Below are positions 9,398 through 9,502 of a stretch of DNA of 10,328 nucleotides, one piece after another. The notes under the pieces were generated by a model, which was not told the DNA's origin, made no database searches, and was given only the letters and a program-made list of their open reading frames with translations. Positions within the stretch are counted from its first letter, which is position 1, and each line of letters starts with the position of its first letter. The stretch is from Eubacteriales bacterium (GTDB lineage Bacteria > Bacillota > Clostridia > Lachnospirales > JAVBJY01): assembly GCA_031546735.1 (NCBI GenBank), contig JAVBJY010000111.1, positions 1-10,328 of the forward strand, read 5' to 3'. The position numbers and the translations under genes are program-made.

Positions 9398-9440
9398 CAG
9401 ACGTGACAGGTCTGTGCCTTAACCACTTGGCTAACGCCCG
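9398..9440 (-). other. Module C: tRNA-Asp(GUC)-like 5' half (5' acceptor strand, D-arm, complete anticodon stem-loop) lacking variable loop, T-arm and 3' end
   Basis: GGGCGUU A GCC AAGUGGUUAA GGC A CAGAC CUGUCAC GUCUG, with U33 and A37 canonical. It is followed by CAUGAAAAUCAAGAGG, which has no GGTTCGA-type T-loop. Confidence 0.5.
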
Positions 9441-9502
9441 AAGGCGTATGGGAGTCGAACCCATGCATTTGAGGCAACGCTCTACCGCTGAGCTACTTCT
9501 TA
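9441..9502 (-). other. Module B: tRNA-like element with canonical D-arm and canonical T-arm but no proper anticodon arm, ending in 3' acceptor-like strand ACGCCUU
   Basis: (U)AAGAAG UA GCUC AGCGGUA GAGC G UUGCCUCAAAUGC AUGGG UUCGACU CCCAU ACGCCUU C. Only 13 nt separate the D-arm and T-arm. The embedded CUCAAAU could be a degenerate anticodon loop (CAA) on a 3-bp stem. Confidence 0.45.

Follow-up and report, generated by a model that had tools for sequence, protein, structure and literature searches.

The segment at positions 9398-9464, on the minus strand of the window (the whole 10,328-nucleotide stretch of Eubacteriales DNA analysed here, a complete contig), is probably the second of two tandem tRNA mimics in a structured RNA of about 390 nt, likely the RNA subunit of an RtcB and Band-7 repair system. 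A T arm, a UUCG-capped helix, a D arm and an anticodon arm follow one another in this segment, as had been predicted, and both the order and the covariation of these helices agreed with the permuted-tRNA topology, opened at the variable-loop position, that the original prediction had proposed. The coordinates then given for the unit, 9398-9502, held for 9398-9464 but not for 9465-9502, which contains part of the acceptor hairpin, the D arm and the 3' strand of the closing stem of the preceding module 1, plus the linker between the modules. Judged from its sequence, the question whether the flagged segment is a novel bacterial split tRNA is settled in the negative.

The rtcB–Band-7 locus and the outer domains of the RNA

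The gene upstream of the RNA was rtcB, as had been claimed. Its 3' part (9648..10328, minus strand, 226 codons plus stop; the gene runs past the window end) matched positions 188-426 of the Pfam RtcB profile (PF01139) with an E-value of 2.1e-71. On the other side, also on the minus strand, lies an SPFH/Band-7 gene (8047..9162) encoding 371 amino acids starting MKIIINENERGF, with a Pfam Band_7 match of 5.5e-28 and with homologues named slipin family protein; no membrane segment was evident in the sequence of its product. The start of this gene was picked by agreement with relatives and by an AAGGGAG ribosome-binding site, and this shorter, homologue-checked start was adopted after an exact look-up of a longer ORF of 392 amino acids had returned no match. 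The RNA occupies the entire intergenic gap between both genes, on their coding strand, in a cassette with the order WYL-like gene, WYL-like gene, rtcB, RNA, Band_7, the pair of WYL-like regulators being encoded divergently from rtcB. Among 80 rtcB loci, the RNA and the Band-7 gene were both found downstream in 45, neither in 23 and just one of them in 6. Thus, they co-occur almost perfectly, and the link of the tRNA-like unit to rtcB is real and conserved.

Just past the rtcB stop, a small GNRA-capped hairpin, AGGC-GAAA-GCCU, is read from the sequence at 9621..9632 (minus strand); on inspection, relatives carried equivalent hairpins with other stems at this place, such as AUGC-GAAA-GCAU and GGC-GGAA-GCC. 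The 5' domain proper (9538..9612, minus strand) comprises three helices and two motifs. Helix P1 (9602-9612 with 9538-9548) encloses, in 5' to 3' order, hairpin P2 (9580-9595), the motif GCGGUGCC (9572-9579), hairpin P3 (9557-9571) and the motif GGUAUACC (9549-9556). P1 covaries, its mean helix length being 8.13 bp versus 6.11 +/- 0.22 when the partners were permuted (highest of 1000 permutations, 6.95), and the base of P3 (GCCN/NGGU) showed changes on both sides among relatives.

Downstream of the modules, a variable A-rich region (9312..9397, minus strand) includes the hairpin GCUGUUUA...UAAACAGC at 9337-9362; relatives have a hairpin of different sequence there, as seen by inspection. It is followed by a conserved 3' motif, GGAUACCGCAA (9301..9311, minus strand), which is present in most family members and could pair over a long range with the 5' motif (UGCGGU/ACCGCA; AU-CC/GGAU). 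The core 5 bp of this pairing were paired in about 95% of cells, one core pair being GC in 19, GU in 16, AU in 3 and other in 1. A rival local pairing of the 5' motif GCGGU was partly supported as well, and the local and the distal pairing each showed compensatory changes in a few sequences. Last comes a tail element (9244..9294, minus strand), with a stem UUUUGCC/GGAUAAAA around CCAUGG, a hairpin and AAGCCGG, located upstream of the SPFH ribosome-binding site; relatives were seen, on inspection, to repeat the pattern UUAUCC-CAUG-hairpin-(A)GCCGGAUAA.

Another explanation of this layout is an element acting in cis within the operon mRNA, in which case its tRNA-like folds would be RNase P/Z-type punctuation, a stability signal or a leader for SPFH translation. 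In line with such an element, the RNA fills the gap between both genes completely and lies on the coding strand, a conserved tail directly upstream of the SPFH ribosome-binding site would suit it, and a 5' motif with two mutually exclusive partners could be a switch. Promoter and terminator prediction over 9100-9750, in which nothing was found, leaves an independent transcript and an operon-internal segment indistinguishable. However, the kept tertiary contacts, the presence of one to three modules plus a lone T arm and the anticodon-like loops exceed by far the needs of a cleavage signal, RNase P acts poorly on short acceptor helices, and the related Ro60-linked RNAs are stable and trans-acting (PMC4201824; bioRxiv 10.1101/312249). 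We therefore regard a purely cis-acting role as quite improbable.

Two tRNA-like modules and their covariation

Between the outer domains, both modules share a T arm, a short, loop-closed acceptor-like helix and a D arm. Module 1 (9473..9533, minus strand) scored 62.4 bits with our R1 covariance model, and a subthreshold Rfam match to YrlA (26.2 bits) covered it. It is shut by an anticodon-stem-like helix, GGCAA/UUGCC (9529-9533 with 9473-9477), and continues with the V loop GUGC (9525-9528), the T arm (9508-9524), the capped acceptor-like hairpin CUUC-GUAA-GAAG (9496-9507) and U8-A9 with the D arm (9478-9495). Family-wide, this closing stem has 5 bp and the V loop 4-5 nt, and the stem covaries (mean 4.97 bp versus 3.53 +/- 0.19 with permuted partners). 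The linker UCAAAUGC (9465..9472, minus strand) provides with its last base C48 of module 2; a (C)AAAU(G) linker was common after module 1 among relatives.

Module 2, the flagged unit, starts with the T arm AUGGG-UUCGACU-CCCAU (9448..9464, minus strand), the stem of which covaries among relatives. The acceptor-like helix A-CGCC-UUCG-GGCG-U (9434..9447) consists of 5 bp (ACGCC/GGCGU) under a UUCG cap, and three of its five pairs had changed on both sides among eight relatives. U8-A9, a 3-bp D arm of tRNA-Cys/Gln type, GCC-A-AGUGGUUA-A-GGC, and A26 follow at 9415..9433, the D-arm sequence being present also in real tRNA-Cys and tRNA-Gln genes. The unit ends with the anticodon-like arm CAGAC-CUGUCAC-GUCUG (9398..9414), again with a covarying stem and the sole hairpin in the window with a CUGUNAN loop. 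Since module 2 carries this complete arm, it is at the variable-loop position that its chain comes in and exits. The covariance model found module 2 at 9415-9464 with 54.1 bits (E about 5e-12). In the eight relatives with the four-helix unit, 99.3% of cells were paired and eight pairs had changed on both sides, a covariation reached by none of 500 shuffles.

The fold of the modules was thus established by covariation at the level of the whole family. The R1 model was seeded with 29 modules, in which 91.4% of cells were paired and 106 had changed on both sides, versus 33 in shuffles (0/500 reached the observed value); a hand-written module finder had given spurious matches only and was replaced by this model. 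Applied to the window and 80 Clostridia rtcB loci, it yielded 59 matches of at least 40 bits, all of them on the rtcB strand and two inside the window, and individual family RNAs held one to three full modules plus a lone T arm. Anaerocolumna xylanovorans DSM 12503 (L008) and Clostridium sp. KNHs205 (L002) are among the carriers available in culture. U8 and A14 were invariant in 55 of 55 modules, in which the 15:48 pair was G:C in 39, A:U in 10 and other in 6, a distribution reached by none of 10000 shuffles. As the modules keep these tRNA-elbow nucleotides, an L-shaped fold is expected, devoid of a free acceptor end. The acceptor-like helix mostly had 4-6 bp across the family (3-10 by a naive count), and NCCA occurred at it in no member. 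Minimum-free-energy folding did not set the region apart (z of -0.5 over 9390-9537 and of -2.2 over 9380-9650), and the family matched no Rfam model at threshold. Scanning metagenome and viral contigs for a T loop, a gap and a GCCAAG-type D arm mostly retrieved adjacent genuine tRNA genes, for example tRNA-Gly then tRNA-Cys, and added just two distant capped modules (L092 and L155).

These data bear on the possibility that the modules are decayed, functionless debris of tandemly duplicated tRNA genes. The pieces do resemble real tRNA arms, down to a D arm identical to that of tRNA-Cys and tRNA-Gln, and there is a partial Rfam tRNA match. Debris is nevertheless contradicted already by the compensatory changes in every helix, as it is by a permuted order kept in 59 copies, at loci whose RtcB proteins are only 64-82% identical, by a fixed position and strand and by the near-perfect co-occurrence with the Band-7 gene; such an origin appears extremely improbable.

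The original prediction went in another direction, describing module 2 as tRNA-Asp-like and as a split or permuted precursor whose ends RtcB would join, a functional tRNA being released after opening of the acceptor loop. Several features invite this reading: the parts stand in permuted-tRNA order, rtcB adjoins, and the loop CUGUCAC is identical to the anticodon loop that genuine tRNA-Asp genes in the loci analysed have most often. In addition, RNase P cleaves M. smegmatis YrlA, whose acceptor stem has 7 bp, and CCA is added to this RNA (PMC4201824), and possible processing of some YrlA RNAs was raised by Wang et al. in 2018 (bioRxiv 10.1101/312249). The acceptor helix of module 2, however, has only 5 bp and a 4-nt tetraloop, and neither discriminator, CCA nor removable spacer was found in it; Salmonella YrlA and D. 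radiodurans Yrn1, which likewise do not have a 7-bp acceptor stem, are not cut by RNase P (PMC4201824). No splicing endonuclease has been reported from bacteria (bioRxiv 10.1101/312249). ARAGORN called no tRNA in the window nor in the RNA of 60 loci (L001-L060). The Rfam tRNA match at 9448-9495 (31 bits) was a chimera of the D arm of module 1 and the T arm of module 2, in the alignment of which the anticodon arm was deleted.

The loop and the junctions pointed the same way. The match to tRNA-Asp loops stood, but a conserved decoding identity did not: the loops recorded at the module 2 position were CUGUCAC (the window), UUUCAGA, AUUAAA, AAGGUA, CUUCAAA, CUUAACAA and UUAGGGA, and those of the seven relatives, 6-8 nt long, were unrelated in sequence, so that no decoding identity is kept. 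As for the TGCATG repeat noted at the outer junctions, it is present at 9462-9467 and 9394-9399 but does not exceed chance, the window holding four copies of this hexamer versus eight expected. The UGCAUG repeat is peculiar to the window, junction repeats in the seven relatives with module 2 never being longer than 2-4 nt, and its upstream copy extends into the T stem, sharing the AUG of AUGGG, and could form a closing helix only at the expense of that stem. Closure of module 2 by a CAUG/CAUG helix was rejected on these grounds of overlap and lack of conservation, and neither a conserved helix nor a bulge-helix-bulge was found at the outer junction in the window and the seven relatives. Maturation of module 2 by ligation is thus unsupported, given short acceptor helices without CCA and loops that differ among relatives, and we consider a tRNA-Asp precursor very improbable.

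Relation to YrlA, Yrn1, permuted tRNA genes and b7a-tRNA

The notion of a closed, permuted tRNA beside rtcB was not new, since YrlA RNAs had been likened to circularly permuted tRNAs with closed acceptor stems by Wang et al. in 2018 (bioRxiv 10.1101/312249). YrlA combines a T arm and a D arm with an acceptor-like stem, and tRNA enzymes modify it (Chen et al. 2014, PMC4201824). The window RNA resembles it (RF02553) in the order of T arm, closed acceptor-like helix and D arm, in the 5-bp anticodon-stem-like closing helix and the V loop, in the conservation of U8, A14, GG and T-loop nucleotides, in the covarying 15:48 pair, in the variable acceptor length and in being encoded beside rtcB. It differs in scoring 26.2 bits against an Rfam gathering threshold of 69, in having two tandem modules, one of them with a complete anticodon-like arm in place of the closing helix, and in that these modules form part of a far larger RNA, which has conserved domains of its own on the 5' and the 3' side. 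A search of 11 related or similar loci at the gathering threshold likewise produced tRNA matches only and no YrlA.

The partner gene differs as well, being SPFH/Band-7 instead of Ro60/TROVE. No TROVE match was found in the window genes, among the genes conserved next to the RNA at 41 loci that have it or in L265-L268, and there is no conserved Ro60-binding strand. The window does contain a Ro60-type GNCGAAN0-1G sequence, GGCGAAAG, but it forms the stem and GNRA loop of the 9621-9632 hairpin; relatives have GGCGGAAG, GGCGCAGG or AUGCGAAAG there, and its candidacy as a Ro60-binding motif was rejected for this lack of conservation.

D. radiodurans Yrn1 is comparable in that it can be modelled with features of a D loop, with a T arm and with an anticodon-like arm of 5 bp that stands apart (PMC4201824), and in Yrn1 as in module 2 the anticodon stem would not be the place where the chain exits from the tRNA-like fold. 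Yrn1, in contrast, has a loop of 6 nt and neither a full D arm nor a V arm, and it binds Ro60 and tethers PNPase. In red and green algae and in Thermofilum pendens, permuted tRNA genes (PMC3978253) also have the 3' half upstream of the 5' half and an acceptor stem that is at first a closed loop. Theirs, however, is a bulge-helix-bulge junction cut by splicing endonuclease, with a circular intermediate, a full acceptor stem, a removable spacer and an aminoacylated tRNA as product (PMC3978253). At the window locus, bulge-helix-bulge, full acceptor stem and removable spacer are neither present nor conserved.

The closest counterpart comes from the account of Wang et al. in 2018, who mention a predicted Band-7-associated tRNA-like RNA beside RtcB (bioRxiv 10.1101/312249). 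According to this account, the b7a-tRNA was predicted by Burroughs and Aravind in 2016, without experimental validation, and was said to 'strongly resemble an authentic tRNA' (via bioRxiv 10.1101/312249). That likeness fits reading from a module's D arm on into the T arm that comes next. Like the b7a-tRNA so described, the window RNA is a non-coding tRNA-like RNA beside RtcB and a Band-7 protein, an order found at 45 of 80 rtcB loci. By its genomic context and by that second-hand account, the window RNA is most likely a b7a-tRNA; the function of RNAs of this kind is a predicted one.

Anticodon-like hairpins and a possible role of the RNA

The recurrence across the family of hairpins with Asn/Asp/Tyr-type anticodon loops (CUGUNAA) is a new detail. 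Hairpins with a YUGUNAN loop occurred 13 times versus 0.6 expected. Such a hairpin was present in 21 of the 46 family RNAs, where it sat on no fewer than 10 different covarying stems and in three different positions. YUGUNAN was the commonest class of 7-nt loop in the family, and loops of this type equal real anticodon loops of tRNA-Asn, tRNA-Tyr and tRNA-Asp.

This enrichment suggested a variant of the repair-RNA reading, in which the anticodon-like arm would be a decoy for nucleases that cut the anticodon loops of GUN tRNAs (Asp, Asn, Tyr). Cleavage would leave 2',3'-cyclic phosphate and 5'-OH ends, and either these would be resealed by RtcB or their sensing by the WYL proteins would switch the operon on. 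A comparable logic is known from Salmonella, where the RtcR-controlled operon is switched on by nicked tRNAs or by tRNA fragments with a cyclic phosphate at the end, and YrlA has already been suggested to be a decoy (PMC10159003). WYL domains are ligand-binding regulators of defence systems. On the other side, Salmonella YrlA fragments were not seen after nuclease induction (PMC10159003). About half of the family RNAs have no such loop, and the closest relatives of the window carry other loops at the module 2 position. We know of no nuclease of this specificity in these organisms. The loop could instead be a docking site for protein or RNA, or a site for queuine insertion by Tgt. This variant is thus unlikely, if conceivable. 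In its most specific form, CAGAC-CUGUCAC-GUCUG would be a family-wide bait that copies the anticodon loops of GUN tRNAs on a tRNA-shaped body. RNA cut in the manner of colicin E5, its ends held together by the fold, would then signal alarm to the WYL pair and be a built-in substrate of RtcB, which is improbable on present evidence.

Our preferred reading is that of a cognate RNA subunit. Probably transcribed together with rtcB, and controlled by the divergently encoded pair of WYL-domain regulators, it most likely belongs to an RtcB and Band-7 RNA-repair system. As part of a ribonucleoprotein, it would display tRNA elbows and an anticodon stem-loop to tRNA-recognising proteins, candidate binders being the ligase, the SPFH scaffold, tRNA-modifying enzymes and tRNA-cleaving toxins. 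A parallel is what has been proposed for the Ro60–YrlA pair of rsr-yrlBA-rtcBA operons.

Repair operons with RtcB are widespread, and the role of the tRNA-like RNAs that accompany them is the question at stake. For this family the architecture is now concrete and backed by covariation: a three-helix 5' domain, one to three YrlA-type elbows, a recurrent Asp/Asn/Tyr-type anticodon stem-loop and a conserved 3' motif. It makes binding by RtcB and SPFH, cutting of the loop, its modification by Tgt and its re-ligation, as well as sensing by WYL proteins, accessible to experiment. If the bait reading were true, the system would be a self-contained damage sensor and decoy against tRNA-targeting toxins, mounted on an SPFH scaffold.

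Permuted tRNA-like modules downstream of rtcB

Read 5' to 3' on the minus strand, positions 9464-9398 hold a T arm (AUGGG-UUCGACU-CCCAU), a UUCG-capped helix of 5 bp (A-CGCC-UUCG-GGCG-U), a D arm (UA-GCCA-AGUGGUUA-AGGC-A) and an anticodon-like arm (CAGAC-CUGUCAC-GUCUG), and the head-to-tail arrangement described in the original prediction was therefore correct. This unit (module 2) was indeed present within the claimed span of 9398-9502, but the end at 9502 intruded into another unit located directly upstream, module 1 (9533-9473, minus strand: GGCAA, GUGC, T arm, CUUC-GUAA-GAAG, D arm, UUGCC).

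A scan with an RtcB fragment, restricted to one genome per species, provided 80 loci, all from Clostridia and mostly from Lachnospiraceae (64-82% identity to the fragment), many of which carried homologous DNA right after rtcB. In an alignment of 29 modules, each comprising T arm, capped helix and D arm, the three helices were paired in 91.4% of cells and displayed both-side changes in 106 cells versus 33 upon shuffling (0 of 500 shuffles), a pairing signal that was lost on sliding the partners. The derived covariance model yielded 59 matches scoring 40 bits or more over the window and the 80 loci; all were on the rtcB strand, most started about 120-250 nt past the rtcB stop, and the two from the window scored 62.4 and 54.1 bits. 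Closure of module 1 was almost always ensured by a 5-bp helix and a variable loop of 4-5 nt, the mean helix length being 4.97 bp versus 3.53 ± 0.19 for cross-locus flanks (maximum 4.16 in 2000 permutations). As to the nucleotides that shape the tRNA elbow, all 55 distinct modules kept U8 and A14 and 53 kept A9, the T loop was UUCRANY, and the 15:48 Levitt pair covaried (G:C 39, A:U 10, other 6; 0 of 10000 shuffles). The modules are true mimics of tRNA that should adopt an L shape, their acceptor ends being closed; set beside such covariation, the explanation of the RNA as tRNA debris is extremely improbable. At L271, a related locus (249-400, plus strand), the acceptor-like helix of module 1 contained an insertion of about 130 nt forming a long extended arm, and the tip of this helix therefore accepts large additions.

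A complete second module with an anticodon-like arm was restricted to the window's clade (the window and related loci L265, L270, L271, L272, L009, L002 and L004), for which extra loci were obtained via close SPFH homologues. Among these eight sequences, 99.3% of module 2 cells were paired and 8 of 17 pairs showed both-side changes (0 of 500 shuffles). The anticodon-like stem covaried (CAGAC/GUCUG, CAGAU/AUCUG, UAGAC/GUCUA, CAGGA/UCCUG, CAGAG/CUCUG), and its loop was of 6-8 nt among relatives, with no sequence kinship. The UGCAUG repeat, formerly regarded as a permutation mark, is incidental: it was exclusive to the window, the longest string common to both junctions in the seven relatives reaching 2-4 nt, its upstream copy takes in three T-stem bases, and the hexamer was not enriched within the window.

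A conserved frame with anticodon-like hairpins

The modules were embedded in a conserved frame with a 5' domain (9538-9612, minus strand) and a 3' string, GGAUACCGY (9301-9311, minus strand), found in most family members. The closing helix of the 5' domain, P1, covaried (8.13 bp versus 6.11 ± 0.22 in the control), and its interior held two hairpins, the second with compensatory changes at its base, and two strings that hardly varied, GCGGUGCC and GGUAUNCC. On the minus strand, motif GCGGUGCC (9572-9579) had two rival partners, local GGUAUACCG (9549-9556) and distal GGAUACCGC (9301-9311), of nearly the same sequence, mutually exclusive and each backed by a few compensatory changes. Its GCGGU can pair with either local ...ACC(G), favoured by compensation in two sequences, or distal ACCGY, where about 95% of cells could pair and any A always faced U. 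The motif could be part of a pseudoknot or a switch. A purely cis-acting role, in which the RNA would serve as an element of the operon mRNA, is unlikely.

In most members, one full module preceded an AAAUGGYA linker resembling a D loop, a hairpin and an isolated T arm; in the window's clade this second element has become a complete permuted module, and three modules were present in L002, L004 and L270. A conserved tail element (window 9244-9294, minus strand), located past the 3' motif and ahead of the SPFH ribosome-binding site, displayed a stem enclosing CCAUG, a hairpin and (A)GCCGG, many relatives showing UUAUCC-CAUG...CCGGAUAA. Two other loci, L045 (2510-2700) and L048 (1662-1850, both plus strand), carried about four tandem units of about 24 nt (GAGAAAAAAGCAAUCCGGGUAAUU) between rtcB and the RNA.

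Hairpins with a 7-nt YUGUNAN loop were found 13 times 3' of module 1 in the family versus 0.6 upon shuffling (maximum 3 in 200). Of 308 hairpins with a 7-nt loop, 16 displayed CUGUUAA, CUGUCAA, CUGUAAA or CUGUCAC, CUGUUAA ranking first and CUGUCAA third in loop frequency. At least one YUGUNAN hairpin occurred in 21 of 46 RNAs, with stems of many kinds and a location that varied among three sites, and exactly one in the window, namely the module 2 anticodon arm. The commonest loops of real tRNAs in the fetched loci included CUGUUAA (tRNA-Asn), CUGUAAA (tRNA-Tyr) and CUGUCAC (tRNA-Asp). Because these hairpins recur in the family and match tRNA-Asn, tRNA-Tyr and tRNA-Asp loops, the Asp-like loop of module 2 is probably not accidental, though it is not fixed at its position. 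The same three tRNAs are colicin E5 targets, and tRNA-guanine transglycosylase recognises U33-G34-U35. That the arm acts as a bait or sensor, a decoy for anticodon nucleases acting at GUN loops, has a low probability. In L272 (about 330-360, plus strand), a hairpin UCCG-CUCAUAA-CGGA was located upstream of module 1; its loop looks to be of tRNA-Met type (anticodon CAU), so the family may mimic anticodons other than those of GUN loops.

Genetic context

In the window, the rtcB frame (Pfam RtcB, E 2e-71) stops at 9648-9650 and the next gene, an SPFH/Band-7 'slipin', starts at 9162, both on the minus strand; the 485-nt gap contains the modules. Neighbour clustering outlined a cassette of two divergently transcribed proteins, rtcB, the RNA and Band_7. 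The two proteins (about 330 aa and 410-460 aa) both had WYL-domain matches (Pfam, PADLOC) and formed an adjacent pair, divergent from rtcB in most loci (L008 7040-9410; L265-L268 1-1170, minus strand), in an arrangement resembling that of PafB/PafC. This pair would hold the regulatory place taken by RtcR in proteobacteria.

Among the 80 rtcB loci, the RNA and the SPFH gene occurred together in 45 and were both missing in 23, while two had the RNA without the gene and four the gene with a reduced RNA only (T arm and hairpin). The RNA is a conserved, structured, tRNA-shaped molecule that shares its coding strand with rtcB and is linked to the Band-7 gene. Downstream of the SPFH gene and in the same orientation, the window (a complete NCBI contig of 10,328 nt) encodes an 1802-aa protein that combines pectinesterase and GDSL lipase/acylhydrolase domains (2267-7675, minus strand).

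No Ro60/TROVE gene was found in rtcB loci of the RNA/SPFH type. Eight loci without window-type RNA had, in place of a Band-7 gene after rtcB, a DUF2828/DUF7788 protein upstream of it, a gene itself preceded by other tRNA-like elements (L029 7480-7900, plus strand; weaker matches in L030, L031, L038, L039 and L068). One such element, 113 nt long and interrupted by a long insertion, matched the Rfam tRNA model over its full length; a hairpin with a CUGUCAA loop, as in Band-7-linked RNAs, lay 5' of a T arm. DUF2828 may be a relative of the Ro60 TROVE domain.

Relation to known tRNA-like RNAs and putative role

No tRNA gene was called by ARAGORN in the window. Its sole at-threshold Rfam match, a partial tRNA (9448-9495, 31 bits), fused the module 1 D arm to the module 2 T arm with the anticodon arm deleted; as a family, the RNA matched no Rfam model at threshold. 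A relaxed threshold added YrlA (Y RNA-like A) at 9452-9541, with 26 bits versus a cut-off of 69. YrlA is a Y RNA with T arm, acceptor-like stem and D arm that is modified by tRNA enzymes, and RNase P cuts only the version from M. smegmatis, whose stem has 7 bp (Chen et al. 2014, PMC4201824). The window RNA would work along the lines of YrlA but differs by its sub-threshold Rfam score and by the lack of a Ro60-binding strand and of an adjacent rsr gene. YrlA RNAs have been likened to circularly permuted tRNAs whose acceptor stems are closed; YrlA occasionally adjoins Band-7, and its possible processing has been discussed (Wang et al. 2018, bioRxiv 10.1101/312249). According to the second-hand account in that report, a 'band 7-associated tRNA' adjoining RtcB and a Band-7 protein was predicted by Burroughs and Aravind (2016) and never validated; the window RNA matches this defining context as relayed there. 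The locus belongs to a kind already predicted in the literature.

Permuted tRNA genes, whose precursors have a bulge-helix-bulge junction cut by the splicing endonuclease and pass through a circular intermediate, have been described in six algae and one archaeon (Soma 2014, PMC3978253). The window RNA agreed with them only in the order of the halves; it lacked a conserved junction helix or bulge-helix-bulge, a full acceptor stem with a removable spacer and a CCA end, and an anticodon kept among relatives. The original prediction was largely right as an observation, and its topology and RtcB link stood; novelty did not, nor did maturation through ligation, which is very improbable for helices mostly of 4-6 bp across the family and never followed by NCCA. 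Elements appearing able to yield free acceptor ends, and differing thereby from the window module, were found beside ordinary tRNA genes on phage and metagenome contigs: L137 (5269-5370, plus strand), L104, L122, L167, L210, L216, L218, L220, L222, L223, L224, L228, L232, L237, L248 and L261, with variants in L095 and L143. They comprised a T arm, a 7-nt 3' acceptor strand plus N and an encoded CCA, an AAAA(U) spacer, a 7-nt 5' acceptor strand, a D arm and an anticodon arm (5-bp stem, 7-nt loop); their complementary flanks (GGGAAAACGAAAAGUGUUUACAGUAA ... AAAAUACUUUUAAAUUGUUCCC) would make a long stem at the variable-arm position. They received no ARAGORN call and, in the loci tested, no YrlA match at the Rfam threshold.

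The RNA is probably transcribed together with rtcB under control of the WYL pair and probably serves RtcB and the SPFH scaffold as their RNA partner, offering tRNA-like elbows and an anticodon stem-loop to proteins able to recognise tRNA. With the architecture of this RNA family and the GUN-type anticodon mimic that recurs in it, function is directly open to experiment.
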